The position numbers and the translations under genes are program-made. DNA of 64,000 nt from Candidatus Omnitrophota bacterium (GTDB lineage: Bacteria; Omnitrophota; Gorgyraeia; Zapsychrales; Fredricksoniimonadaceae), in contig JAGWOI010000001.1 in assembly GCA_028870995.1 (NCBI GenBank), positions 26,273 to 90,272 of the forward strand, read 5' to 3'. The stretch's first letter is position 1; the number at the start of each line of letters is the position of its first letter. The notes below the pieces were generated by a model. That model made no database searches. It was not told the DNA's origin and saw only the letters and a program-made list of their open reading frames with translations. Positions 1-17,177 of this stretch are shown in pieces.

Positions 1-498
1 CACGGCTCCATTTATGTGGTCATGAAAACCGAAGGGGAATTCCATGACCGGGCCAGGGGCTGGGTCAAGAATTGCATCATCTTTTTTGTGATCATGTACG
101 TGATTTTGACCATGGCCACCCTTTTATATGTGCCCCACATGGTGGCCAATTTCCAGAAATATCCCGTGCTGTTCTTTATCCCGGTGGCTAATCTCCTATT
201 GATCGCCAATGTACCAAGGGAAATTTATCATAAAAGGGATTTTATGGCTTTCCTATCGTCCTGCGGGGCCATCGTTGTCCTTATGTTCCTTCTTGGTTTC
301 GGCATTTTTCCCAATCTGGTCCTTTCGAACCCGCATCCTGAATTCAGCCTGAATATCTACCAGGATTCATCCTCGCTTAAAACCCTGCAGATCATGCTGG
401 TCATCGCCCTTATAGGCATGCCGGTGGTCCTTGCTTATACGCTGAGCATCTATTGGATCTTCCGCGGCAAGGTCAAGTTGGATGATCACAGTTATTAG
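1..498 (+). CDS. cydB: Cytochrome bd ubiquinol oxidase subunit II, C-terminal fragment (5' end lies outside the window)
   Basis: The open frame runs off the window start. The protein is a polytopic membrane protein whose C-terminal block PVVLAYTLSIYWIFRGKV...HSY matches the conserved CydB tail pattern (LLYT..YW.FRGK). Confidence 0.6.
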   Translation, partial: HGSIYVVMKTEGEFHDRARGWVKNCIIFFVIMYVILTMATLLYVPHMVANFQKYPVLFFIPVANLLLIANVPREIYHKRDFMAFLSSCGAIVVLMFLLGFGIFPNLVLSNPHPEFSLNIYQDSSSLKTLQIMLVIALIGMPVVLAYTLSIYWIFRGKVKLDDHSY

Positions 499-1064: not shown

Positions 1065-1781
1065 ATGAATTTTTTAGTCCTTTCATTAGCGATACTTCTG
1101 TTGACAGGCTGCAGTGGACAACAGCAACCCCGCCACTATACGGAGGTGGTTTCCCAAACACCTCAGGCTCGGACAGTACCTGCTCCTGTTCAAAAACCGG
1201 CGGATAACCCGCATGCCGGACTTAACATGGGGGCTAATCTGACACCGGATGCCCGTGCTAATTTGCAAAAAATGATGGCCGAAGGACAGGACCCGCATTC
1301 GGGCATCGACATGTCCGCCTTTGCGGGCGGCAGCAACGGCCCGGCTGAGCCCAGCCCCTATACATGGTCTATTCCTAAGGGTTGGAAGCAGGGGCCTGCC
1401 AAAATGATGCGCCTGGCCTCATTCTATAAGGAAGGCGACCCTGATGCCGTCGACTGTTCCATTGTGGTCCTGCCCGGCACAGCAGGCGGCGAAGAAGCCA
1501 ATATCAAGCGCTGGATGGGGCAGGTTGGCATTGATCTTTCGGATGCCAATTATCAAAAACTTCTTGGCAGTGCTCAAACCATCCAAACTCAGGGGGGCTT
1601 GCAGGCCAAGGTTTATGATTTGACGGCCCTGTCCGGTGCCGCCGGCAAGTCCATGATCGCTGCGATGATCTCAACCAACGGGACCACTATTTTTGTCAAA
1701 ATGACCGGTGTCGGTCAAGCCGTCAAACAAAACCAGGCACAATTCCTTGAACTATTGAAATCTCTGGCTCCCAAAAACTAG
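1065..1781 (+). CDS. Hypothetical lipoprotein
   Basis: Signal peptide with lipobox LLLTGC (Cys at position 16). No recognisable domain. Sits immediately upstream of ccsB. Confidence 0.55.
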   Translation: MNFLVLSLAILLLTGCSGQQQPRHYTEVVSQTPQARTVPAPVQKPADNPHAGLNMGANLTPDARANLQKMMAEGQDPHSGIDMSAFAGGSNGPAEPSPYTWSIPKGWKQGPAKMMRLASFYKEGDPDAVDCSIVVLPGTAGGEEANIKRWMGQVGIDLSDANYQKLLGSAQTIQTQGGLQAKVYDLTALSGAAGKSMIAAMISTNGTTIFVKMTGVGQAVKQNQAQFLELLKSLAPKN

Positions 1782-1784
1782 ATC

Positions 1785-2885
1785 ATGTTAAAACTTCTTA
1801 GTTCAGTCCGCATCACCGTCGTTTGCCTGTTCCTGCTTTTTGTCCTTACTTTTTGGGGGACCATGGCCCAGGTGCAGCAGGGGTTGTACGCGGCCCAGGA
1901 GCGTTTTTTTGCCTCCTTTTTCTTTTTGGCCGGAGGGTGGTTTCCTTTCCCGGGCGCTCAGCTGGTGCTTTGGATTTTGTTCATCAATCTGGTGGCCGCC
2001 TTAATCACTCATTTTAAGAAACAGAGCGGCTGGGCCTCCATCGGCGGCAAAATCACCCATATTGGACTTATCCTTTATTTTGCCGCAGCCTTCTTTATTT
2101 TCCATCTTTCCAGGGAATCTTATGTGCATTTGGGAGAAGGCGACAGCACCAATGTTTCCACCTCCTATACGGAATGGGAATTAGCGTATTGGCAGGAGCA
2201 GGGCGCTTCCAGGCAGGTCACCGCACTCGACAGCAAAAATTTTAAACCAGGGGACAGGGTGGCGTTCAATAATCCTGACTTCACGCTGCGCGTGGCGCAA
2301 TATTATCCTAACTCTGATGCCTATGACAACGGCAGCAGTCCCAAACCGGCCGGTATCATCAGCCTTGATGCCATCAGCCATATCGCAGGCAAACCCATGG
2401 ATAAAGAAAGAGAAAAGAATATCGCCGGCGGTGTTTTTGATCTGAGCTTCGGCGGCAAGTCCCTCACCCTGCTGCTTTTTGGGGCCGAGACCAACCCGAC
2501 CCGGGTGGCCATCAATGGAAAAAATTATTATTTTATCCTGCGGCATAAAACATTCCCGCTGCCTTTTGCCTTGAAACTGGACCGTTTTAAAGTTGCATTT
2601 CATCCCGGGACCGATATGGCCAAAAGTTATCAAAGCTGGGTCACCATCACCACCGGCTCTCTCACCCGGCAGGTGCGTATTTATATGAACAATCCGTTGC
2701 GTTATAAAGATTACACCTTGTACCAGGCCTCCTACGATACAGATCCCCAAGGCAGGCAATATTCGACGCTGGCCGTGGTCAAAAATTCGGCCCGGCTGCT
2801 GCCGTATATCTCCTGCCTTTTGGTGTTTTTAGGCTTGGCGTTGCATTTTCTTACTCAGGCTATTATCACGAAATTAAGATTATGA
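1785..2885 (+). CDS. ccsB: Cytochrome c biogenesis protein, system II (ResB/CcsB-like)
   Basis: 366 aa. N-terminal TM helices, a periplasmic loop and a C-terminal TM helix. ITHIGLILYF-type helix as in ResB. Followed by ccsA with a 4-nt overlap. Confidence 0.65.
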   Translation: MLKLLSSVRITVVCLFLLFVLTFWGTMAQVQQGLYAAQERFFASFFFLAGGWFPFPGAQLVLWILFINLVAALITHFKKQSGWASIGGKITHIGLILYFAAAFFIFHLSRESYVHLGEGDSTNVSTSYTEWELAYWQEQGASRQVTALDSKNFKPGDRVAFNNPDFTLRVAQYYPNSDAYDNGSSPKPAGIISLDAISHIAGKPMDKEREKNIAGGVFDLSFGGKSLTLLLFGAETNPTRVAINGKNYYFILRHKTFPLPFALKLDRFKVAFHPGTDMAKSYQSWVTITTGSLTRQVRIYMNNPLRYKDYTLYQASYDTDPQGRQYSTLAVVKNSARLLPYISCLLVFLGLALHFLTQAIITKLRL

Positions 2886-4744
2886 AAACCAGATCCATTT
2901 TTTTAAGTTTAATCGTGTGCCTATGCTTGACGCCCACAGCCATGGCCCAGGAGGGCAAATTTTTAGACCATTTTAAGGGCATTCCGGTGCTGCAGGAAGG
3001 CCGCCTTAAACCCCTGGACACCTATGCGCGCAATCTGTTGATCCAGTTCTCTGGAAAGGACAGTTATGATCACGCCCCGGCAGCTGCTTGGCTCGCCAAA
3101 CTTTTGTTCACGCCGTTCCATGCCGCTGATGACAAGGTGTTCTTGATCAATAATCCCGAAATCGCAACGGCCTTGAACATCAAACCCGAAGCCGGGCGCC
3201 GTTACAGTTTCGCTGAATTAAAAGATGCCTTCCCCAAATTAGTGCAGTTAAAAGAGGAAGCCGCCAATATCGATGAACGCCAGCGCACCCTGGTGGAGAA
3301 TGAGATCATCCGGGTGGCCCAGAACGTGGAGCTTTACATTGATTTCTCCGAGGATTTCCTTTGGGCTTATCCTGACCAGGATTTTACCATCACCTCGCCT
3401 GAAATCAAAAAACAGTTGGGGCTTCCCCAGGACCAGAACCAATTCAGTTTTATTGATATGGCTTTTAATGCCGGTAAAATCAAAGATTTAATGCTGGGGC
3501 TTAAAAATAAATCTAAAGAACAGATTTTAGGGCCGCAACTTGAGTTGATGTCCGCGGTCAACAACATGGTCCATTGGACCAAGGATTATCAAAATTTGCC
3601 TTTTGAGGTGATTCCTCCGGCAGAGGGCAATGACTGGTTAAGCCCGTGGGACGCCATATCAGGTGGACTTTCCGAAGGTCAAAGGAAACTTATTGGGCTT
3701 TGGTATCAAATGGCCCAAGCCTATGCCGCAGGGAATTTCATCGATTTCGACATGGCTGCTCAATCTTATTTAGGGGCGGTGAAAGAAAATCTCAAGCCAA
3801 GACAGTTGAATATCATCCGCAAGTTTCCTCTGGAAATGACCTATGAAGCAGCCAAGCCGTTCTTGTGGGCCAGGATTTTCTATATTCTTGCTTTTATATT
3901 TTTTATCATCTCCTTTACCTCATCTAAAAAGGTCTGGTATGTTTTGGGGCTTTTATCCGTAGTGGCAGGTTTTATCCCGCATACTCTTGGGCTTGTGGCG
4001 CGGATTATCATCATGGCCAGGCCGCCGGTCACCAATCTTTATGAGACCTTTATCTTTGTCGGATTTATCAGCGTACTCCTAGGGCTTGGCATCGAGTATT
4101 TTAACCGGCGCTGGCTGGGCCTCGTTACGGCCGCCATTTGCGGCACCATCCTTTTATTCATTGCCGGGAGGTACAGTGCTGAAGGCGATACCCTCAAGAT
4201 GCTGGTGGCGGTCCTGAATTCCAATTTTTGGCTGGCGACCCATGTCACCACCATCACTATGGGTTATGGCGCCACGTGTGTGGCCGGGATATTGGGTCAC
4301 ATTTGGCTTATCCAGGCGAGCTTGGGCAAGAAGCGAGAGGTCCTGGATAATACGTATAAAACCACCTTGGGGATCATGGGGGTGGCGTTGACTCTGACAT
4401 TTTTAGGGACCAACCTGGGCGGCATCTGGGCCGACCAAAGCTGGGGCCGGTTTTGGGGCTGGGACCCCAAGGAAAATGGGGCCCTGATGATCGTGCTTTG
4501 GCTGGCGATCCTGTTCCATGCCAAGTTTGCCATGATGATCGATGATTTCGGCCTGGCCATCGGGTGTGTGATCAGCATGATGGTGGTCATGTGGGCCTGG
4601 TTCGGGGTGAATTTGCTGAGCATCGGCCTTCATTCTTATGGATTTACTTCGGGGATCGCCAATGCCCTGATCATATACGCCGCCGGAGAAATTGCGTTTA
4701 TCATCCTTACCGCTACATTAGTGATCCGCCGCAGATCTACGTAG
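2882..4744 (+). CDS. ccsA: Cytochrome c-type biogenesis protein CcsA/ResC (haem lyase, WWD domain) with a long N-terminal periplasmic extension
   Basis: 620 aa. Signal peptide, about 330 aa periplasmic region, then a polytopic domain with the tryptophan-rich WWD motif WGRFWGWDPKENGALMIVLWLAILFHAKF. Confidence 0.8.
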   Translation: MKTRSIFLSLIVCLCLTPTAMAQEGKFLDHFKGIPVLQEGRLKPLDTYARNLLIQFSGKDSYDHAPAAAWLAKLLFTPFHAADDKVFLINNPEIATALNIKPEAGRRYSFAELKDAFPKLVQLKEEAANIDERQRTLVENEIIRVAQNVELYIDFSEDFLWAYPDQDFTITSPEIKKQLGLPQDQNQFSFIDMAFNAGKIKDLMLGLKNKSKEQILGPQLELMSAVNNMVHWTKDYQNLPFEVIPPAEGNDWLSPWDAISGGLSEGQRKLIGLWYQMAQAYAAGNFIDFDMAAQSYLGAVKENLKPRQLNIIRKFPLEMTYEAAKPFLWARIFYILAFIFFIISFTSSKKVWYVLGLLSVVAGFIPHTLGLVARIIIMARPPVTNLYETFIFVGFISVLLGLGIEYFNRRWLGLVTAAICGTILLFIAGRYSAEGDTLKMLVAVLNSNFWLATHVTTITMGYGATCVAGILGHIWLIQASLGKKREVLDNTYKTTLGIMGVALTLTFLGTNLGGIWADQSWGRFWGWDPKENGALMIVLWLAILFHAKFAMMIDDFGLAIGCVISMMVVMWAWFGVNLLSIGLHSYGFTSGIANALIIYAAGEIAFIILTATLVIRRRST

Positions 4745-4788
4745 AATTTCGTATTTTTATATTTCCTTCCTTCCCCTATACTTTAGAT

Positions 4789-5577
4789 ATGATTAATCCT
4801 TTTAAATTCCTTTATGGTCCCGTGTATTCATGGAGACTGGGAAAATCGTTGGGCATCGACCCATTATCCGGTTCTGGAAAAATTTGCAATATGGATTGTG
4901 TCTATTGCCAGCTGGGGAAAACCAGCCGTTTGACGGAAACCAGGAAAGAATTCGTGCCCACGGCGGATTTGATGGAAGAAGTACGCCGGCTGCCGCTTTT
5001 TTTTGTTGATTATCTGACCTTTTCAGGCCGGGGAGAGCCGACCCTGGCCAGCAATCTGGGCGACATGATCCGCAGTATTAAGAGCTGCCGGCATGAGCAT
5101 GTGGCGGTGATCACCAATTCTTCTTTGCTGTATCAGAAGGACGTGCGGGAAGATCTCCAAAAGGCTGATTTTGTGCTGGCCAAATTGGATGGCGCCAACC
5201 AGCAAACATTTCAGGCCGTGGCCGGGACCCCTTTGGAGCTGGATAAGGTGTTGGGCGGCATTTTTGATTTCCGCCGGGGATTCAAAGGGAAATTCGCCCT
5301 GCAGATCATGCTGATCGATGATAACCTGGACAATGTCCAACAGTTAGCCGCTGTTGCCGCTGAACTTTCCTGCGATGAAGTGCAGCTTAACACCCCATTG
5401 AGGCCCTGCGCCATCCAACCCCTCGAGCGTCCGCAGATCCAAAACGCCAAGAAGTTCTTTCAGGGGCTGCCGGTGGTGACCGTGTGGGACGCCCCGCCGC
5501 AAAGCTACACGCCGTTTAACCACCAAGCCACCGTCAAGCGACACGGCAACTTTGTCAAAACTAGGTATGGTGTTTAA
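4789..5577 (+). CDS. Radical SAM domain protein of unknown specificity
   Basis: CNMDCVYCQ (CxxxCxxC) cluster motif 30 aa from the start used here. Start placed at ATG 4789 (MINPFKFLYGPV...) because the ORF-track start at 4564 overlaps the ccsA 3' end. GRGEPTL glycine-rich SAM motif present. Confidence 0.6.
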   Translation: MINPFKFLYGPVYSWRLGKSLGIDPLSGSGKICNMDCVYCQLGKTSRLTETRKEFVPTADLMEEVRRLPLFFVDYLTFSGRGEPTLASNLGDMIRSIKSCRHEHVAVITNSSLLYQKDVREDLQKADFVLAKLDGANQQTFQAVAGTPLELDKVLGGIFDFRRGFKGKFALQIMLIDDNLDNVQQLAAVAAELSCDEVQLNTPLRPCAIQPLERPQIQNAKKFFQGLPVVTVWDAPPQSYTPFNHQATVKRHGNFVKTRYGV

Positions 5578-5607
5578 AAACGCCGGTGGTATAATTGACC
5601 TTAAATT

Positions 5608-6675
5608 ATGCCGATGCCTGGTTCCTTTTTCCAACGATATGCCTTAGAGAAGACACTCAAGGAGTTGGCGGACATTAAGTTCGCCCTTGATGTGTCTTCG
5701 ATCGTGGCCATTACCGATCAAACGGGAAAGATCGTTTACGCCAACGACAAGTTCTGCGAGATTTCCAAGTACTCCCACGAAGAACTGCTCGGCCAGAATC
5801 ACCGCATCATCAATTCCGGTTATCATCCCAAGGAATTTTTCCGTGACCTGTGGCGGACCATCGCCCAAGGCAAGGTATGGACAGGTGAGATCTGCAACCG
5901 CGCCAAGGACGGATCGATTTATTGGGTGGATACCACGATTGTTCCCTTTCTAAACGATAGGGGCAAGCCGTTCCAATATGTTTCCATCCGCAACGAAATA
6001 ACCCAGCGCAAATTGATGGAAGATGAGATCAAGGCGATCCCCCAGCGCATCATCCAGGCCCAGGAGAGCGAAGCTAACCGCATCGCCAGGGACATCCACG
6101 ATGATTTGGGGCAGTCGCTGGCCACCTTAAAAATACTTATCCAATCCGCATGGATGCCGGATGTAAAGAATTTCCCTCAAGAGAAGAAAGACCATGAGAA
6201 GATCATCAACTATTTGAGCAGCATCATTGAAAAATCCCGCAACCTGGCCATGCGGTTGAGGCCTTCAACGCTCGACACCTTAGGGCTGACGACGGCCCTA
6301 AAGCTCATGTTCACCGAGATCAACCGCTCCAAGTCCTTGAAGGTAGAGTTCAGACATAATAAGATCGATCACTTGAAGTATGATTCTGAAGCCATTAATA
6401 TTTACCGTATCGTCCAGGAGGCTATGGGCAATTGTATCAAGCATGCTTCGGCCAGCCTGGTCAAGATTGATCTGCGTCTTGTCAAGGAGCGGTTAAAGAT
6501 CCGGATTACGGACAACGGCAAGGGTTTTGTCGTAACGGGAAAATCCAGCGGTTTGGGGCTGGTCACCATGAAGGAGAGGGTCATTCTTTTAGGGGGGGAC
6601 ATTAAAATCCAATCAGTGCCTAAAAAAGGCACCACTATTTCCATCAACATTCCAGTGAGGGGTAAAAAATCATGA
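5608..6675 (+). CDS. PAS-domain sensor histidine kinase, HisKA_3 (NarX/DegS) type
   Basis: N-terminal PAS fold. H-box IHDDLGQSLATLKI. C-terminal HATPase_c G-boxes (DNGKGF, GLGL). Confidence 0.8.
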   Translation: MPMPGSFFQRYALEKTLKELADIKFALDVSSIVAITDQTGKIVYANDKFCEISKYSHEELLGQNHRIINSGYHPKEFFRDLWRTIAQGKVWTGEICNRAKDGSIYWVDTTIVPFLNDRGKPFQYVSIRNEITQRKLMEDEIKAIPQRIIQAQESEANRIARDIHDDLGQSLATLKILIQSAWMPDVKNFPQEKKDHEKIINYLSSIIEKSRNLAMRLRPSTLDTLGLTTALKLMFTEINRSKSLKVEFRHNKIDHLKYDSEAINIYRIVQEAMGNCIKHASASLVKIDLRLVKERLKIRITDNGKGFVVTGKSSGLGLVTMKERVILLGGDIKIQSVPKKGTTISINIPVRGKKS

Positions 6676-7316
6676 GCGCTATCCGGGTCATATTGGCCGA
6701 TGATCATGCCATGCTGAGGTCAGGCTTAAGGGGTTTATTGGAGAAAAACCCTGATTTTAAAGTCGTCGGGGAAGCCGGCAACGGTGAGGTCCTGCTGGAC
6801 AAATTAAAAAGCACCAAGGTCGATTGCGTTGTTCTGGATCTGTCCATGCCCCTGATGGACGGTCTGGAAACCCTCAAGGAACTGCGCCAGCGCCACCCCA
6901 AGCTCAAGGTCCTGATACTGACCATGCAAAAAGATATCGACCATTTCAAGTACGCCATGGCCCACGGAGCCAACGGCTATGTCCTTAAAGACGGGGCTTT
7001 TGAACAACTGGTCATGGCCATCAAGATGGTCATGAAGGGCAAAAGTTTTGTGTCACCGGCGATTTCCGAATATATAACGGAGCAGTATGTGCGCTCCATC
7101 GAGGCGAGCGACGTTCCCTCCCTGGAAATCCTTACTAACCGCGAGAAACAGGTTCTAGCCCTTATCGTCAAGGGAGCGGCCAACAAAAACATCGCCTCTT
7201 CCTTGAAAATCAGCATCAGGACCGTCGAAACCCACCGTAGCCGCCTCATCCACAAATTGGGCATCAAGACCGCTGCCGGCCTGGTCAAATACGCCATGGC
7301 CAAGGGTCTGATTTGA
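6672..7316 (+). CDS. NarL/FixJ-family response regulator (receiver + LuxR HTH)
   Basis: RVILADDH...LDLSMP receiver motifs. C-terminal LuxR-type HTH (LTNREKQVLALIVKGAANKNIASSLKISIRTVETHR). ATGA overlap with the kinase gene. Confidence 0.85.
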   Translation: MSAIRVILADDHAMLRSGLRGLLEKNPDFKVVGEAGNGEVLLDKLKSTKVDCVVLDLSMPLMDGLETLKELRQRHPKLKVLILTMQKDIDHFKYAMAHGANGYVLKDGAFEQLVMAIKMVMKGKSFVSPAISEYITEQYVRSIEASDVPSLEILTNREKQVLALIVKGAANKNIASSLKISIRTVETHRSRLIHKLGIKTAAGLVKYAMAKGLI

Positions 7317-7436
7317 CCCCTCCGTCCTTCCTTAAGTGTTACTACGTACGGCCTTAAGTAGTTCACCCCATTCATATTTTCTCCTTTTGAGATTATCCTG
7401 TAAGTAGTTGAAGTGCCGTCTAAAAGGGTAGGATTT

Positions 7437-7814
7437 ATGACCGCTATATTGATCGTGGAAGACCATAAGGAATTCCGCGAGGCCATCAAAAAATTCATCA
7501 TCATGAAAGGCGTCAAGGCCGATATCCTGGAAGCCATGACCGCGGAGGAGGCCATGGGTATCGCCTCCTCCCATCGCCCCAAGGTCGTCATCATCGACAT
7601 CCATTTAACCAAAGGTGTCAGCGGCCTGGAGCTGGCTTCATCCATAAAGGCCAAAGACCCGTCCTGCAGCATCATCCTGTTGACCATGTATACCAACCAG
7701 GACATGAAACATCTGTGCAAGACCAAGGACGTGGAAGACTTTATCGATAAAAGCGACCTGGATGTCCGCCTGGTGCCGGCGATCAACCGTCTTTTAGCCC
7801 TGGAGAGGGCATAG
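7437..7814 (+). CDS. Stand-alone CheY-like receiver domain protein
   Basis: ILIVEDH...VVIIDIHL receiver signature with no output domain. Start taken at ATG 7437, which has an upstream AGGG. The overlapping 297-aa minus-strand ORF 6977..7870 is judged spurious. Confidence 0.65.
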   Translation: MTAILIVEDHKEFREAIKKFIIMKGVKADILEAMTAEEAMGIASSHRPKVVIIDIHLTKGVSGLELASSIKAKDPSCSIILLTMYTNQDMKHLCKTKDVEDFIDKSDLDVRLVPAINRLLALERA

Positions 7815-7829
7815 AGATTTCCCCAAAAA

Positions 7830-8837
7830 ATGAAGCTGGCAAGCTTGCATAACAAGATCCTTTTCAGCATGGTATCTTTGCTGCTGTTGCTGGGCTTTTT
7901 TATATGGCTGGTGACCCAAACTTTTTTGTTATCGCTTAAGACCAGCGTTTTCCAGTCGCTGCATTCGCTGCATTTGCTGATGCTGACGACGACCTTGGGG
8001 TTTGCCTTGCTCGGGATATTCCTGGCCTTTTACCTGTCGGGTCTCATCACCAAACCACTTTCACAGCTGGTCCAGGGGATAGAGGCGATCAAGAAGGGGG
8101 ATTTCTCAGGAAGGATCGATATCCGGACCGAAGACGAGATCGGGGTTCTGGCCGGTGCTTTCAATGAAATGAGTGACCGTTTGAACCTGCTTATCAGCGA
8201 GGTGACGGCCCTTGCCAAGTTCCGCGAGAGGGAGAAGATAGCCCTGGATTTCCATGACGGCTGCGCCCAGGACCTGGTCAGTCTTTTAAAAAGAATTGAA
8301 TTGTGTGAAAAACTGGTTGAGGCCAGATCTCCGGAGGCGCTGGTGGAATTGGGACTTTTGAGGGACTATACCAAGAATATTTTGACCTCCACCCGGAACA
8401 TGATCTGTGATTTGAAATCGAAGGAAGATTTCGAAGTGCCGTTGGTGGAGAAAATCAGCGGTTTCCTGAAGGATTATGAAAGGATCAATGGTTGTAAAGT
8501 CGCTTTCAACGCTTCGGGGCCGGTGACGGCCCTTTCATCGGACCAAAATGAACATTTATTTTATATCATCACGGAGGCCTTGAGCAATATAAGGAAACAC
8601 AGCAGGGCGCAAAAAGTGACGGTAAATATTAAATCCAGTTTGCAACACCTTGAAGTTACGGTGAAGGACAATGGCAAGGGTTTTGATGTGGCCGCAGAAA
8701 ATGCGGATGATCCCCATCGCAGGAAATTCGGCCTGATGGCGATGCGCCATAGGGCCCAGGCGATAGGCGCGCGGTTAAACATCCAGTCGACCATCGGCCG
8801 GGGAAGCGAAGTGGGCTTGGAGCTAGGAGTTAAATAA
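7830..8837 (+). CDS. Membrane sensor histidine kinase (HAMP + HisKA_3 + HATPase_c)
   Basis: Two N-terminal TM helices, a HAMP-like linker, H-box LDFHDGCAQDLVSL and the DNGKGF G-box. Confidence 0.8.
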   Translation: MKLASLHNKILFSMVSLLLLLGFFIWLVTQTFLLSLKTSVFQSLHSLHLLMLTTTLGFALLGIFLAFYLSGLITKPLSQLVQGIEAIKKGDFSGRIDIRTEDEIGVLAGAFNEMSDRLNLLISEVTALAKFREREKIALDFHDGCAQDLVSLLKRIELCEKLVEARSPEALVELGLLRDYTKNILTSTRNMICDLKSKEDFEVPLVEKISGFLKDYERINGCKVAFNASGPVTALSSDQNEHLFYIITEALSNIRKHSRAQKVTVNIKSSLQHLEVTVKDNGKGFDVAAENADDPHRRKFGLMAMRHRAQAIGARLNIQSTIGRGSEVGLELGVK

Positions 8838-9493
8838 TGTCACAAGTACGTGTCTTTTTATGCGATGACCACACCTTGTTCCGTCAAGGTGTCAAGAAGC
8901 TGCTGGATTTGGAAAAGGACATTAAGGTGGTGGGAGAAGCCGGCGATGCCTATCAAATGTTTGAGGCATTAAGGTCACTTGCCGTGGATATTGTACTTTT
9001 GGATATCAATATGCCCAAAATGGACGGGGTGAAGGCCACCTTCAGGATAAGGAAGGAACACCCGCATGTGGCGGTGGTCATTTTGACGGTCCATGAGGAT
9101 GAGCCTTATATTTTTCAGGCGATCAAGGCAGGTGCCATGGGGTATCTCCTTAAGGATGTGTCCATCAAGGAGTTGGCCGAAGCCGTGCGCAAGGTGTCTG
9201 AAGGGGAAGCCCTCCTTCAGCCGATCATTGCTTCAAAGGTTCTAAAAGAATTCGTGATGCTGGATAAAAGGAAGGCCAGGGAAGGCCAAAAGTCTGGCAG
9301 TAATTTAACGGCACGGGAAGAGGAAATCCTGAGGTTTATTGCCATGGGCGATTCAAACAAGGAGATTGCGCAAAAAATCGGGATTACCGAGAAGACCGTC
9401 AAAAACCATGTCAGCAATATCCTTACCTGTCTTCACGTGAACAACCGCACCCAGGCCGCCCTTTATGCTTTGGGTAAAACTCCGGCAACCTGA
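8837..9493 (+). CDS. NarL/FixJ-family response regulator (receiver + LuxR HTH)
   Basis: VFLCDDHTLFRQG...LLDINMP receiver. LuxR HTH LTAREEEILRFIAMGDSNKEIAQKIGITEKTVKNH. Confidence 0.85.
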   Translation: MSQVRVFLCDDHTLFRQGVKKLLDLEKDIKVVGEAGDAYQMFEALRSLAVDIVLLDINMPKMDGVKATFRIRKEHPHVAVVILTVHEDEPYIFQAIKAGAMGYLLKDVSIKELAEAVRKVSEGEALLQPIIASKVLKEFVMLDKRKAREGQKSGSNLTAREEEILRFIAMGDSNKEIAQKIGITEKTVKNHVSNILTCLHVNNRTQAALYALGKTPAT

Positions 9494-9764: not shown

Positions 9765-10811
9765 ATGAACATCCTGGCGGTTGGAATCAATCATAAGACC
9801 TCGTCTATAGATATTAGGGAAAGGTTCTTTTTACAGCCTCTTGAGCGGGAATTGCTTGTAAACGAGCTGCTAAAGGACCCGCGCATCATTGAGGCTTTTG
9901 TCCTGTCAACCTGCAACCGGACGGAAATTTATGCCAATGCGATCGAGGACCAGCCGCAGCTGCTGATGAAGGCGTTGTTTAAAATCAAGAAGGTTCCCTT
10001 AAGTGCCGATCTGGCCGGTCATTTTTATACCCTGTCATCCCGCCAGGCCATTGACCACCTGTTGCGGGTGACCACGGGGTTGGATTCTCTGGTGGTGGGT
10101 GAAAAACAGATTTTAGGCCAGGTTAAGGAGGCTTTTGAATTCTCCAGAAGCAAAGGCGCATTGAGCAAAACTTTTAATGTTCTTTCCAATCTGGTGGTGC
10201 AGACCGGCAAAAAAGCCCGACATGAGACGCAGATCGATTTTGGCGGTTCATCGGTCAGCTGGGCGTCGGTCATGATGGCGCAGGATATTCTGGGTTCATT
10301 GCAGGACAAAGCTGTCTTGATTTTGGGCTCAGGCAAAATGGGCCGCTTGGCTGTGGAGCAGCTGGCTAAAAAGGGTGTGGCCAAGATCTATATCATGAAT
10401 AGGACGATCGAAAAAGCCCAGGAATTGGCCCGCGAAAGCGGCGGGATAGCCGTGGGCATTTGGGACATCAAGGAAATCCTGCAGCAGGTCGATGCCTGCA
10501 TCTGCTCGGCCAGCTGCACGCACCATTTAATAGAGAAGGACCTGGTGGAAGCCGCCATGGCCGCCCGGCCGTCCCGTCCCTTGGTATGCATCGATATCTC
10601 CATGCCCCGCAATATTGCGCCTGAGGTGGCGGAAGTGGGGAATGTACGCCTGGCGACGGTGGATGACTTGGACAGGATCGTGGAGAGCAATATGCAAAAG
10701 CGGATGTCGGCCGTCGCCCTGGTGGAAGGTCTGATCGACCGGAAGATCGATGAATTCTACAAAACTATGGAGAAGATTACCCTAATCAAGGAGGAATTAT
10801 GGAAAGCTTAA
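9765..10811 (+). CDS. hemA: Glutamyl-tRNA reductase
   Basis: MNILAVGINHKTSSIDIRERF...STCNRTEIY, with the conserved catalytic Cys in TCNR, and an NADP-binding GSGKMG Rossmann motif. Confidence 0.9.
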   Translation: MNILAVGINHKTSSIDIRERFFLQPLERELLVNELLKDPRIIEAFVLSTCNRTEIYANAIEDQPQLLMKALFKIKKVPLSADLAGHFYTLSSRQAIDHLLRVTTGLDSLVVGEKQILGQVKEAFEFSRSKGALSKTFNVLSNLVVQTGKKARHETQIDFGGSSVSWASVMMAQDILGSLQDKAVLILGSGKMGRLAVEQLAKKGVAKIYIMNRTIEKAQELARESGGIAVGIWDIKEILQQVDACICSASCTHHLIEKDLVEAAMAARPSRPLVCIDISMPRNIAPEVAEVGNVRLATVDDLDRIVESNMQKRMSAVALVEGLIDRKIDEFYKTMEKITLIKEELWKA

Positions 10812-14082: not shown

Positions 14083-15582
14083 ATGAGCTCAAAACCAGCC
14101 AAACAACGGTTCGACGACAGTTTTTATAACAACATCACCTATATCGGTGTAGTCTTATCGTTGTTTGTGCTGGTTTGCGAGCTCTTTTTGTTCGCCATTG
14201 ATTTTGCCTCTCCGCGGCCCAGCGTTTATCTGGGGCTGATCACGTATTGTTTTCTGCCGCCGCTTTTGATCCTCGGGCTTATCTTAATCCCGACAGGCGC
14301 CCTTCTTAAGCGAAAACACATTCTTCATTCAGGAAAACCGCGGCCGATCCTGATTGATCTTTCCCTGGCGACCCATCAAAATGCCGTGGTGATTTTCATG
14401 ATCGGCACGGTGCTGCTCTTGGTCATGACTGCCATCGGTTCCTACAAGGCTTTCAATTACACGGAATCGACCGGGTTTTGCGGGTTGACCTGCCATCAGA
14501 TCATGAAACCCGAATATACGACACATAGCCATTCCCCCCATGAGCGGGTCAGGTGTGTTGAGTGCCATGTCGGATCAGGAGCGGATTGGTACCTGCGTTA
14601 TAAGATGGCCGGGACCAAGATGGTGGTCAAAACTTTCGACGGCAGGTATCATCGTCCCACCCCGGCGCCTCTCCAGAACCTGCGTCCGGCCAAGGAGATC
14701 TGTGAACAGTGTCATTGGCCGGGTAAATTGTTCAGCGCGGTATTGCTCAATAAGGTTTATTATGCCGATGATCCGACCCAGACCCCGCCATGGAAGATCA
14801 ACCTGCTGATGCGTGTCGGTGCCGGCAAGGTCGGTGGTGCGGGGGTTCACGCCCACATGTATTTTAGCAATGAGATTTTTTACGTGGCTGATGATGCTAA
14901 GCGGCAGAATATCACCTGGGTCAAGACGATCGACAAGGCTGGCAAGGTTACCATCTACACGACCAAGGATTCACCTTATAAAAAAGTCAACCCGCCACAG
15001 GACAAGGTCCGCCGGATGGATTGCATTGACTGCCATAACCGCGCCACGCACCGTTTCGAGGCGCCGGATGTACTCATGAACCGCGCCTTGGCCCAAGGCG
15101 CTATCAGCTCTTCCATTCCCATGATCAAGTCCGAAGGCGTTGAAGTACTGGGCAAGACCTATAGCTCCACTGCCGCCGCGGAAAAACAGATCCGCGAGGG
15201 CTTGATGGATTATTACAGTAAGAAGCAGCCTGGCTATTTCGCCGGCCACCAGGCCGCTGTCGAGAATGCCATTGCCGAGATCATCCGTTTGTACCGCAAG
15301 AATTTCTTTCCGGAAATGAAATCCCGCTGGGACGCCTATCCGGACAACATCGGGCACATGATTTCGTTGGGCTGTTTCCGGTGCCATGACAATGAGCACA
15401 AGTCCGCGGGCGGCCGGGTGATTTCTCGGAAATGCACCCTTTGCCATGTCATCGTGGAACAGGGCAGCGGCACCTCGACCGAGAAGAATCTGGAGGGGCT
15501 GGAATTTAAGCATCCTTTCAACGATCCCGGTGATGACTCATGGAAGACGGCCAATTGCTCAGACTGCCATACCGGAAGTTAG
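14083..15582 (+). CDS. Membrane-anchored heptahaem c-type cytochrome (NapC/NirT-related, ImcH-like architecture)
   Basis: Three N-terminal hydrophobic helices, then CGLTCH (CX3CH), CVECH, CEQCH, CIDCH, CFRCH, CTLCH and CSDCH. Confidence 0.7.
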   Translation: MSSKPAKQRFDDSFYNNITYIGVVLSLFVLVCELFLFAIDFASPRPSVYLGLITYCFLPPLLILGLILIPTGALLKRKHILHSGKPRPILIDLSLATHQNAVVIFMIGTVLLLVMTAIGSYKAFNYTESTGFCGLTCHQIMKPEYTTHSHSPHERVRCVECHVGSGADWYLRYKMAGTKMVVKTFDGRYHRPTPAPLQNLRPAKEICEQCHWPGKLFSAVLLNKVYYADDPTQTPPWKINLLMRVGAGKVGGAGVHAHMYFSNEIFYVADDAKRQNITWVKTIDKAGKVTIYTTKDSPYKKVNPPQDKVRRMDCIDCHNRATHRFEAPDVLMNRALAQGAISSSIPMIKSEGVEVLGKTYSSTAAAEKQIREGLMDYYSKKQPGYFAGHQAAVENAIAEIIRLYRKNFFPEMKSRWDAYPDNIGHMISLGCFRCHDNEHKSAGGRVISRKCTLCHVIVEQGSGTSTEKNLEGLEFKHPFNDPGDDSWKTANCSDCHTGS

Positions 15583-17177
15583 GTCCGGGGGCCTTTTTTT
15601 TATTGTTCCTGACGGCCTTCCCGGCACTGGCCCAGCAGCCGTCCACGGGATCCGTTAAGTTTACCAATCAGGACTGCCTGAGCTGTCATGCCGACGGAGC
15701 CCCCATCGTTGACCAGAAAATTTTTGGCCATTCCGTCCACGGGAAGCTTAATTGCACGGATTGCCACCGTAGCATCACCGACCTTCCACATGCGGAAAAA
15801 CTCCCGAAGGTCGATTGTGCGGTTTGCCATAAGAAGGAGGCCGTGCTTTGGCAGCACAGCGGCCATGCCCAGGCCCTTGGCAACGGTGCCCTGAAAGCTC
15901 CTTCTTGTGAATTTTGTCACGGGACGCATGGTATCACGAAGGCAACTGACAGGCAGTCCCGGTTGTATTGGGCTAATATCCCAGCCATTTGCGGCCAATG
16001 CCACTTCCAAGAGTATAAGGAATACCGTCGAGGTATTCATGGACAGGCCCTGGCCTCCGGCAGCAGGGATGCTCCCGTGTGCACCGATTGCCATGGGGAG
16101 CACGATATCGCTGCTGTTAAGGGAGGAGCTTCCTGGGTTTCCGCGGCCCGTATTCCTCAAACCTGCGGGCAATGCCACTCGGCGGAACGTATCAACAGCA
16201 AGTACAATCTGGCCTCGAACGTTTTAGGAAGCTACATGCAAAGCTATCATGGTCTTGCCATGCAGCAGGGGACCATGACCGCTGCCAACTGCGCTTCCTG
16301 CCATGGGGCGCATGAGATCCTTCCTTCGTCGGACCCGCGCTCCACCATCAATCCCAAGAATTTGGAAAAAACCTGCGGCCGGTGCCATCCCGGCATTGGC
16401 GCCCGGGTGGCCAGCGCCAAAATTCATGAAAGTTTTCAGCCGGGCAATAACCCCCTTAACGATTGGGTAAGCCGTTTTTATATCTTCTTTATCATTTTTG
16501 TCTCAGGTATCCTTTTGCTGCACAATGTCCTGGATTTCTCCAAAAAAGCCCGGGCCCATTACCGGAATTCCATGGGAAAAGGAGCCGAGTATATGGGTTT
16601 TAACGAGCGCTGCCAGCATTTTATCCTGGCCATGACCTTTATCCTTCTGGCGTACACTGGATTTTCCATCAAATTTCCCCAAACTTGGTGGTCATTCATG
16701 TTTTTTGGACACACCGATTGGCTGCGTTGGGGGCACCGCAGTGTTGCCGTCGTCTTTTGCTTGCTGGGCGCCTACCATTTTACCTATTTGTTTTTTACCC
16801 CCAAGGGCCGGTGGCAACTCAAGGCGTTGAGCGTCAGGAAGACGGACTTTGTCCAGTTTTGGCAGAGCTTTCAATATTATTTTGGCCGGCGGGAAGATAA
16901 GCCGCGCAGCAGCGGCATTTACAGTTATGTGCAAAAGCTGGAGTATTGGGCCCTGTTGTGGGGAGGCATGGTGATGGTGCTGACCGGTGCGCTCATGTTC
17001 AACGAAGTCTGGTTTTTCAGCTTATTTCCCAAATGGCTGTATGACGTGGTTAGGACGGTTCACCTGTACGAGGCCATCCTGGCCTGCGTGACCATTGTCA
17101 TCTGGCACGGTTATTTTGTTATTTTCGATCCTGAGATTTACCCCGGCAAAGGGTCATGGCTTCATGGACGGGAGTAG
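15540..17177 (+). CDS. Nonahaem c-type cytochrome fused to a dihaem b-type cytochrome membrane domain (CbcL-like quinol oxidoreductase)
   Basis: Signal peptide. Nine CxxCH motifs (CLSCH, CTDCH, CAVCH, CEFCH, CGQCH, CTDCH, CGQCH, CASCH, CGRCH). A C-terminal domain of about 240 aa with five TM helices carrying conserved His residues, of the HydC/FdnI (Ni/Fe-hydrogenase b-type cytochrome) type. Confidence 0.75.
   Translation: MEDGQLLRLPYRKLGPGAFFLLFLTAFPALAQQPSTGSVKFTNQDCLSCHADGAPIVDQKIFGHSVHGKLNCTDCHRSITDLPHAEKLPKVDCAVCHKKEAVLWQHSGHAQALGNGALKAPSCEFCHGTHGITKATDRQSRLYWANIPAICGQCHFQEYKEYRRGIHGQALASGSRDAPVCTDCHGEHDIAAVKGGASWVSAARIPQTCGQCHSAERINSKYNLASNVLGSYMQSYHGLAMQQGTMTAANCASCHGAHEILPSSDPRSTINPKNLEKTCGRCHPGIGARVASAKIHESFQPGNNPLNDWVSRFYIFFIIFVSGILLLHNVLDFSKKARAHYRNSMGKGAEYMGFNERCQHFILAMTFILLAYTGFSIKFPQTWWSFMFFGHTDWLRWGHRSVAVVFCLLGAYHFTYLFFTPKGRWQLKALSVRKTDFVQFWQSFQYYFGRREDKPRSSGIYSYVQKLEYWALLWGGMVMVLTGALMFNEVWFFSLFPKWLYDVVRTVHLYEAILACVTIVIWHGYFVIFDPEIYPGKGSWLHGRE

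Follow-up and report, generated by a model that had tools for sequence, protein, structure and literature searches.

An ImcH-family heptahaem cytochrome encoded with MtrA-like, MtrB-like and CbcL-family genes in Candidatus Omnitrophota

The gene cluster

The window considered here is a stretch of 64,000 nucleotides (nt) from a Candidatus Omnitrophota bacterium (GCA_028870995.1, contig JAGWOI010000001.1), and its subject is a 499-residue (aa) multihaem cytochrome encoded within an array of seven genes on the same strand (Table 1). The array runs from hemA through genes for a monohaem cytochrome, an MtrA-like cytochrome and an MtrB-like barrel to imcH and two CbcL-family bc cytochromes, with intergenic distances from hemA to the 933-aa last gene of -13, 47, 15, 12, -43 and -22 nt, the last two values being the overlaps of the CbcL-family genes with their upstream neighbours. 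Judged by its sequence, the 499-aa product belongs to the ImcH family within the NapC/NirT superfamily, and it probably forms the quinol-facing end, at the inner membrane, of an electron conduit that spans the envelope and is encoded in one operon. A scan for promoters and terminators was uninformative, promoter-like sites occurring at the level expected from shuffled sequence. The overlap of the imcH and 545-aa coding sequences contains a weak hairpin with a T-run (15572-15594); the T-run encodes signal peptide, and the hairpin is probably coincidental.

Table 1. Genes of the array, followed by other features of the window (window coordinates)
Feature	Coordinates	Strand	Evidence and remarks
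hemA (glutamyl-tRNA reductase), first gene of the tight array	9765..10811	+	Pfam GlutR_N 1e-42, Shikimate_DH 1e-37
Small secreted monohaem c-type cytochrome, 92 aa	10799..11077	+	one CXXCH (CIDCH) and a signal-like N-terminal hydrophobic segment
MtrA/DmsE-family periplasmic multihaem cytochrome, 255 aa	11125..11892	+	7 CXXCH and one CX4CH candidate; 6r2q_A match
MtrB-like outer-membrane beta-barrel, 720 aa	11908..14070	+	fold match; signal-like N-terminus, C-terminal ...GFDW
ImcH-family heptahaem inner-membrane cytochrome, 499 aa	14083..15582	+	ATG start; putative menaquinol:cytochrome c oxidoreductase
CbcL-family bc cytochrome, short 5-helix subtype, 545 aa	15540..17177	+	9 haems c and a dihaem-b-type domain; Ni_hydr_CYTB
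CbcL-family bc cytochrome, long 6-helix subtype, 933 aa	17156..19957	+	19 haems c (19 CXXCH) and a b domain
Cytochrome bd oxidase subunit II, C-terminal part, runs off the window start	16-498	+	Pfam Cyt_bd_oxida_II 2e-26
ResB-like and CcsA, System II cytochrome c maturation	1785..4744	+	Pfam ResB 1e-15, Cytochrom_C_asm 2e-20
Two NarL-type two-component systems, candidate regulators	5608..9493	+	Pfam: PAS-HisKA_3 with RR-GerE; HAMP-HisKA_3 with RR-GerE

An ImcH-family protein

An earlier note on this DNA had described three N-terminal transmembrane helices followed by seven haem sites, the first of them a CX3CH variant, and hydropathy, structural modelling and motif positions agree on that architecture. 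Hydrophobic segments lie at about residues 16-45, 46-76 and 95-124, and an AlphaFold2 model (56 homologues, mean pLDDT, the predicted local distance difference test score, of 77) places long helices at 17-42, 48-81 and 96-127. A single CX3CH site (C133-GLT-C137-H138) is followed by six CXXCH motifs at 158, 207, 314, 431, 451 and 492. Because the Cys and His of these motifs are invariant among homologues, those of the first three in 213 aligned sequences and those of all seven in an alignment of 56 (A3), the motifs are not chance occurrences. The haem domain is predicted to be periplasmic, since the charge distribution, with a basic N-terminus and a basic loop between helices 2 and 3, obeys the positive-inside rule. 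These are the features by which Zhong and Shi (2018, PMC6295460) defined the ImcH family, namely three transmembrane segments, an atypical CX3CH beside the membrane domain and six CXXCH motifs, and the same survey had already catalogued three Omnitrophica homologues of 505 aa (OGX39360.1, OGX46065.1 and OGX49280.1). As a point of reading, the haem-motif positions in Tables S2/S3 of PMC6295460 appear to be 0-based, with the CX3CH site listed like CX2CH; read as 1-based, they are one residue off both the sequences and the numbering of Pimenta et al. (H137).

The likeness to ImcH that the earlier note had proposed is borne out by the pairwise alignment that it had suggested as a check. Compared by BLASTP with GSU3259 of Geobacter sulfurreducens PCA (P0452, accession AAR36650.1, UniRef name 'Cytochrome c-type protein ImcH'), the protein is homologous over its full length, with 36% identity and 55% positives across 491 aa, 11 gaps and an E-value of 3e-122, and all seven haem motifs line up. 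The transmembrane segments of GSU3259 are given as 13-35, 45-67 and 100-122, and its motif spacing of 25/49/106/117/20/38 compares with 25/49/107/117/20/41 here. Comparison with an orthologue from Geobacter sp., in which residue numbering is identical to that of GSU3259, agrees with this result, and the identity falls within the range of 31.5-49% published for ImcH homologues outside Geobacter (PMC6295460). The family is a large one: a single search found over 6,750 proteins, and 602 clusters formed at 50% identity have E-values up to 1e-30. The nearest homologues are proteins of about 500 aa from metagenome-assembled genomes (MAGs) of Candidatus Omnitrophica/Omnitrophota. A search of representatives clustered at 50% identity did not place the Geobacter cluster among its best 150 matches, and the Geobacter sequences used here were obtained through a third homology search and through a scan of genomes that started from a Deltaproteobacteria homologue.

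Best homology to NrfH or NapC, which the earlier note had named as the outcome that would speak against ImcH, is not what was found. The only Pfam match is the NapC/NirT N-terminal region at residues 101-190, and the sole sequence match in the PDB with an E-value below 0.01 is NrfH (residues 111-226, E 1e-3), so that the resemblance is confined to helix 3 and the first haems. Among NCBIfam profiles the protein scores 48.7 bits against NrfH (TIGR03153; cut-off 134.2) and 17.6 against TorC (cut-off 478.2), and no NapC or CymA model scored at all. The assignment to ImcH, anticipated for Omnitrophota in the literature, is sound.

The site of haem 1

In Geobacter ImcH the residues placed around haem 1 are E127, H137, K173 and Y188 (Pimenta et al. 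2023, bioRxiv 10.1101/2023.05.03.539133). In the alignment of 213 sequences these correspond, with a constant offset of +1, to E128, H138, K174 and Y189 of the Omnitrophota protein. Lys is present in all 213 sequences at K174, while the E128 column holds Glu in 175 and Asp in 30 and the Y189 column Tyr in 177 and Phe in 26. The FCxxxCH column, here F132-C133-GLT-C137-H138, is invariant.

The same study predicted, from a model rather than a structure, that Gln179 is the distal ligand of haem 1, and reported it as conserved (bioRxiv 10.1101/2023.05.03.539133). The Omnitrophota protein lacks this Gln: Met180 (codon 14620-14622), which the AlphaFold2 model places together with K174 on a helix at 169-186, aligns with Gln179 of GSU3259. 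Across the 213 homologues the column holds Gln in 156, Met in 45, Arg in 6, Glu in 5 and Lys in 1, and Gln is also absent from other accepted ImcH homologues. All 44 Met-bearing matches are 53-80% identical to the 499-aa protein, every match of at least 58% identity has Met, and Met occurs in none of 94 diverse cluster representatives. Met180 is a clade-specific substitution at the quinol-site haem, of whose iron it is at most a candidate ligand.

The upstream partners

The 255-aa product matches chain A of PDB entry 6r2q, the MtrA chain of the Mtr complex, at E 2.9e-36 and Pfam Paired_CXXCH_1 at 1.4e-26. We take that chain, of 333 aa, to be the MtrA cytochrome, with which the title of the entry is consistent. 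The PDB table used here labels it 'Cystathionine beta-synthase', and filtering by name would lose the match.

The 720-aa product that follows has no match in Pfam or NCBIfam. Its AlphaFold2 model (pLDDT 69) is nevertheless a barrel of about 28 long strands, and the top Foldseek match of that model is MtrB (6r2q_B; E 2.7e-10, template-modelling scores 0.57/0.62), with TonB-dependent receptors scoring about 0.36. The search for homologues gave only 39, all of them lacking Pfam domains, and the source names given are all 'hypothetical protein'. The named NCBI records among them are Candidatus Omnitrophica MAGs, one of which encodes a protein (locus tag KGK03_00225) that is 100% identical to the barrel. 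The family to which it belongs carries no annotation and has so far been seen only in loci of the Omnitrophota type.

Less can be said of the 92-aa cytochrome, which may serve as a periplasmic carrier. It has no Pfam family and no relative in the PDB. An MtoD-like identity was considered and set aside, as there was no match among solved structures and MtoD was not among three weak PDB matches. In related loci a gene of about 90-105 aa stands at the same position.

Conservation of the cluster in Omnitrophota

Seven further loci (L001-L004, L165, L167 and L168; ImcH identity 48-80%) keep the genes for HemA, the small cytochrome, the MtrA-like protein, the barrel and ImcH in this sequence, and MtrA-like and barrel genes accompany imcH in three more (L085, L086 and L088). 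Counted with the window, these make 11 of the 12 Omnitrophota-type loci. CbcL-like genes are distributed differently. The window and L001 have two, L003, L088 and L165 have one, L166 has a divergent one, and L002, L004, L085, L086, L167 and L168 have none within 10 kb. The best-conserved partners of imcH in Omnitrophota are thus the MtrA-like and MtrB-like genes, and the CbcL-like genes are dispensable or accessory, given that half of the Omnitrophota-type loci, 6 of 12, do without them over that distance. Another quinone-interacting module appears to take the neighbourhood of imcH in L002 (7111-9924) and L166 (2342-4914), where genes for a small cytochrome, a 4Fe-4S protein and an NrfD-type membrane protein adjoin imcH or the barrel gene; L002 lacks any CbcL-like gene and L166 has only a divergently oriented long one.

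In their survey, Zhong and Shi (2018, PMC6295460) found no mtrAB or mtoAB genes adjacent to imcH. The Omnitrophota loci are counter-examples to that generalisation, and the survey probably missed such neighbours because the barrel has no sequence-level annotation.

The CbcL-family genes and their adjacency to imcH

That two CbcL-like genes lie directly downstream, as the earlier note had stated, is confirmed by their architecture and by five transmembrane His columns kept in all 10 aligned sequences, both window proteins included. The reference sequences were orthologues in Geobacter-group MAGs (L006 and L011), recognised by haem positions matching those of GSU0274, rather than GSU0274 itself. 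The 545-aa protein matches Ni_hydr_CYTB in Pfam (5e-14) and the FdnI-type TIGR01583 in NCBIfam (1e-12); it is 29% identical to the CbcL orthologue over 534 aa (E 7e-57), and 27-29% identical to CbcL and to its 933-aa paralogue. Its conserved transmembrane His are 328, 360, 399, 508 and 523, and it lacks the sixth helix, as do its relatives from other phyla. The 933-aa protein scores only 23.1 bits against Ni_hydr_CYTB, under the cut-off of 30.1, and its placement relies on the CbcL orthologue in L006, to which it is 38% identical over 594 aa (E 2e-119), and 44-45% identical in the b domain. It shares with CbcL the C-terminal sixth helix and an LFGPDS insert and adds ten N-terminal haems. On these sequence features the 933-aa protein is the closer relative of Geobacter CbcL and the 545-aa protein a distinct subtype. 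Both forms have precedents, the CbcL/MtrH/MtoC family having mostly six transmembrane helices with a few 5-helix members listed, and already including proteins of 910-931 aa with 19-20 haem motifs (Zhong and Shi, PMC6295460, Table S2).

Haem number changes fast in the short paralogue. A relative of 80% identity (L001:5463-7304) has 11 haems to the 9 found here, a stretch of about 68 residues of the haem domain being absent from the window protein, while the membrane domains are 76% identical. Truncation of the 545-aa gene relative to this 613-aa orthologue was considered and rejected, as the haem domain is shorter and the C-terminus is not lost. The start of the gene is ambiguous between ATG 15540 and TTG 15555, of which the TTG yields a cleaner signal peptide; both overlap the stop codon of imcH at 15580-15582.

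The earlier note had taken the contiguity of ImcH and CbcL genes to be special, and this does not hold. The neighbourhoods of imcH were compared in 168 loci (80 species genomes from the scan seeded with a Deltaproteobacteria homologue, 80 metagenome contigs and 8 Omnitrophota contigs), which are the best-scoring subsets of longer lists and not a random sample. The metagenome scan used the 499-aa protein and yielded mostly distant relatives among the matches listed (best 52%); it served for adjacency statistics rather than close synteny. Neighbours were scored by BLASTP with the cytochrome b domains of both downstream window genes, and a locus was counted as well flanked if it had at least 2.5 kb on both sides of imcH. 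Within 10 kb of imcH, 79 of the 102 well-flanked loci show a CbcL-like gene, and in 63 such a gene is the immediate same-strand neighbour. By record title these 102 cover at least 10 phyla, and those with adjacency include Acidobacteriota, Bacteroidota, Ignavibacteriota, Zixibacteria, Latescibacterota, Dadabacteria, Binatia and Thermoanaerobaculia. Over all 168 loci the adjacent gene lies upstream of imcH in 76 and downstream, as in the window, in 6. The short subtype is the one that usually adjoins imcH in other phyla, and both types stand beside imcH in 11 of the first 84 loci, as in Zixibacteria (L077, 5143-11485), where a short type (634 aa, 11 haems) and a long type (927 aa, 19 haems) precede imcH, or in L018:4790-11458 and L024:4772-11476. 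In some loci the long type is encoded as two proteins, one multihaem and the other a cytochrome b of about 300 aa that is 55-62% identical to the b domain of the 933-aa protein.

The statement in the earlier note that Geobacter encodes ImcH and CbcL apart is true of G. sulfurreducens, in which imcH is monocistronic (Levar et al. 2014) and has no cytochrome gene within 10 kb on either side (L169). It fails for some Geobacter-group MAGs, in which imcH has a cbcL orthologue 2-5 kb upstream on its own strand, with opposite-strand genes between them (L006:3220-5064, L010:5869-7749 and L011:3215-5065). Contiguity is therefore ordinary beyond Geobacter, and G. sulfurreducens is the exception.

Function of the cluster and alternative explanations

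The mechanism that we favour is modelled on the biochemistry of Geobacter ImcH and the structure of the Mtr complex. Purified Geobacter ImcH oxidises menaquinol, gives off protons at the P side and reduces PpcA (bioRxiv 10.1101/2023.05.03.539133). By analogy, three helices would anchor the Omnitrophota protein in the inner membrane, and menaquinol would be oxidised in a P-side pocket beside haem 1, after helix 3, lined by E128, K174 and Y189 and placed as modelled for Geobacter ImcH and as in NrfH. Protons would go to the periplasm, making the step electroneutral, while electrons would travel the seven-haem chain to a solvent-exposed haem 7 and pass from there to periplasmic carriers such as the 92-aa monohaem cytochrome, or directly to the MtrA-like protein. 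The latter, threaded in the MtrB-like barrel, would deliver them to an acceptor at or beyond the outer surface, for example Fe(III), Mn(IV) or humics. The two proteins of the CbcL family may work in parallel as quinol/quinone modules integral to the membrane; co-transcribed with the rest, they would be optional accessories and not part of the core.

Several observations weigh against such an outward conduit. Its assigned function depends on 36% identity to one characterised protein, and Met in place of Gln at the predicted distal ligand of haem 1 could alter potential or reactivity. The MtrA-like protein scores 162 bits against the DmsE family model (TIGR03508), under the cut-off of 192.2, and has 8 haem sites, not 10; the confidence of the barrel model is only moderate; and the PDB comparison found for the 92-aa cytochrome no relative of known function. 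The window also encodes no surface cytochrome of the MtrC/OmcA type, which is the layout of the MtoAB and PioAB uptake systems.

The overlaps that link imcH and the two CbcL-like genes, together with the recurrence of this trio in other phyla (for example L077, L018, L024, L040 and L070), might also be read as the earlier note read it, with ImcH and the two CbcL-like proteins as alternative quinol oxidases, each for its own range of acceptor potential, expressed together as one tuned set. The idea is modelled on G. sulfurreducens, which according to PMC5322298 needs ImcH above about -0.1 V and CbcL below it. Both proteins are expressed there whatever the potential, unlike cbcBA, and CbcL appears to be gated at the protein level (10.1101/2022.08.31.506072), so that co-transcription would fit post-translational selection. 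This is pure analogy, however. The short subtype has only 27-29% identity to CbcL and to the long paralogue and no sixth helix, half of the Omnitrophota-type loci have ImcH without any CbcL-like gene nearby, and the invariant MtrAB-like partners are left unexplained. A potential-tuned set is accordingly possible but doubtful.

A conduit that runs inward has a somewhat poorer claim, and we regard it as unlikely. In this case electrons from Fe(II) or minerals would be taken up as in Mto or Pio systems, and ImcH, the CbcL/MtoC-like proteins or both would reduce the quinone pool. The combination of MtrA-like and MtrB-like proteins, a monohaem cytochrome and CbcL/MtoC genes, with no MtrC-like protein, mirrors mtoA-mtoB-mtoC-mtoD of Fe(II) oxidisers, MtoC being itself a CbcL-family protein (PMC6295460), and CbcL/MtrH/MtoC homologues are known in Fe(III) reducers and Fe(II) oxidisers alike. 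The Gln-to-Met substitution could raise the potential of haem 1, and the cytochrome bd oxidase subunit II fragment at the start of the window implies that the organism has a quinol oxidase for oxygen. Against this, the only role linked to ImcH homologues to date is quinol oxidation in Fe(III) reducers (PMC6295460), reduction of menaquinone by Fe(II) is uphill, the 92-aa cytochrome is not similar to MtoD, and neither Cyc2 nor nitrate reductase nor other markers of Fe(II) oxidation were found in the 64-kb window.

Given how often the two genes are adjacent across many phyla, frequently overlapping or with very short spacers, ImcH and a CbcL-type protein could be imagined as an obligate pair, either in a physical complex or in a redox loop between quinol sites on the P and N sides. 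The cytochrome/4Fe-4S/NrfD module that can adjoin imcH where CbcL is absent (L002 and L166) would likewise suggest a recurrent need for a second quinone-interacting module. Yet the monocistronic imcH of G. sulfurreducens and the sufficiency of each protein in its own potential range (PMC5322298) speak otherwise, as does the activity of purified ImcH, which oxidises menaquinol and reduces PpcA alone (bioRxiv 10.1101/2023.05.03.539133). Moreover, L004, L167 and L168 have ImcH with neither CbcL nor the NrfD module nearby, and obligate pairing is quite improbable.

Finally, a quinol dehydrogenase of the NrfH/NapC/CymA type, anchoring or feeding a soluble periplasmic reductase, is effectively refuted: the NapC/NirT N-terminal region and the weak NrfH match that favour it span helix 3 and the first haems only, profile scores are far under their cut-offs, 499 aa with three helices and seven haems stand against about 160-200 aa, one helix and four haems (or, for the NrfH/NapC/TorC/CymA class as a whole, about 160-390 aa, one helix and 4-5 haems), and no nrfA, napA/napAB, torA, dorA or dmsA gene is present among the cluster or flanking genes.

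The remainder of the window

Upstream of hemA, the interval 1065-9493 on the forward strand encodes a 238-aa protein with no Pfam match, the ResB-like and CcsA proteins, a radical SAM gene and the two NarL-type systems. The ResB/CcsA genes are possibly associated with the conduit cluster, as they also stand beside it in L003 and L004, with CcsA alone in L167, and a PAS-HisKA_3 kinase with a GerE response regulator likewise precedes hemA in L002 and L167. Open reading frames with at least two CXXCH motifs are limited, in the 64-kb window, to four genes of the cluster, and the remaining genes are housekeeping. No magnetosome genes occur in the window. Several Omnitrophica MAGs with barrel and ImcH genes (P0311, P0315, P0319 and P0325, locus tags HQL12-HQL15; L166, GCA_015233335.1) presumably derive from a survey of magnetotactic bacteria, and a link between the conduit and iron handling in magnetotactic Omnitrophota is a possible lead.

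Significance

ImcH is the point of entry to high-potential extracellular respiration in Geobacter, and finding its partners elsewhere would improve prediction of the trait from sequence (Levar et al. 2014). In Omnitrophota imcH is hard-wired to an MtrA/MtrB-like pair, which provides candidate downstream partners. Adjacency of imcH and cbcL-like genes is common across phyla, so that the separated genes of Geobacter may be an atypical model. The clade-specific Met is a variant, provided by nature, with which to probe how potential is set by the quinol-site haem; Geobacter ImcH has a window of -350 to -150 mV. The operon is small enough to be tested as a minimal, transplantable electron conduit.

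Every part of the system belongs to a known family, and nothing in it is dramatic. Relative to the literature found, what is new is the operonic link between ImcH and MtrAB-like proteins, the breadth of ImcH-CbcL adjacency and the Gln-to-Met variant; a search in which subscription literature was only partly covered found no paper stating imcH-cbcL adjacency or linking Omnitrophota with Mtr-like genes. A broader proposition joins these threads, namely that ImcH and a CbcL-type protein form an ancient and conserved functional unit, adjacent in most ImcH-bearing lineages, of which the Geobacter arrangement is derived, that in Omnitrophota this unit became operonic with an MtrAB-type outer-membrane conduit not recognised before, so that 6-7 genes would make up a compact and self-contained route between quinol pool and cell surface, and that in the window's clade the substitution of Met for Gln re-tunes the potential or direction of haem 1. 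As a joint claim it is speculative and rather unlikely to hold in all its parts.

Comparison with known systems

NrfH (PDB 2J7A chain C), the only solved structure of the NapC/NirT family, differs in having one helix, four haems and a dedicated NrfA partner, a reductase for which no gene is present here. ImcH of G. sulfurreducens is far closer. The two proteins share three helices, a CX3CH directly after helix 3, six CXXCH motifs at near-identical spacing, a NapC/NirT-like region restricted to helix 3 and the first haems, and the equivalents of E127, K173 and Y188. They differ in host phylum, in the residue at the predicted distal ligand of haem 1 (Gln179 there, Met180 here) and in genetic context, the Geobacter gene being isolated whereas the Omnitrophota gene is operonic with mtrAB-like and cbcL-like genes. 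The Omnitrophica homologues of Zhong and Shi (2018) agree in phylum, length class, the number of transmembrane segments and seven equivalent haem sites; the survey has no mtrAB beside imcH, whereas here an MtrA homologue and an MtrB-like barrel are encoded directly upstream.

With CbcL (GSU0274) and the CbcL/MtrH/MtoC family, both downstream proteins share an architecture in which a multihaem c domain on the periplasmic side is joined to a cytochrome b domain of the HydC/FdnI type with five conserved transmembrane His. The 933-aa protein is like CbcL in its sixth helix and in its 38% identity to the Geobacter-group orthologue, and unlike it in its 10 additional N-terminal haems; the 545-aa protein departs further, with five helices and lower identity.

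The MtrCAB, MtoAB and PioAB clusters, finally, differ in that the barrel considered here matches MtrB by fold only, with no sequence match to the MtrB/PioB Pfam family, and that the MtrA-like protein has 8 haem sites where theirs has 10. ImcH takes the place of CymA here as the NapC/NirT-type inner-membrane partner. The absence of a surface MtrC is shared with MtoAB and PioAB. Common to all of them is the plan itself: a gene for an MtrA-family cytochrome followed by one for a barrel of about 700 aa, with inner-membrane quinol-oxidoreductase genes in the same cluster.

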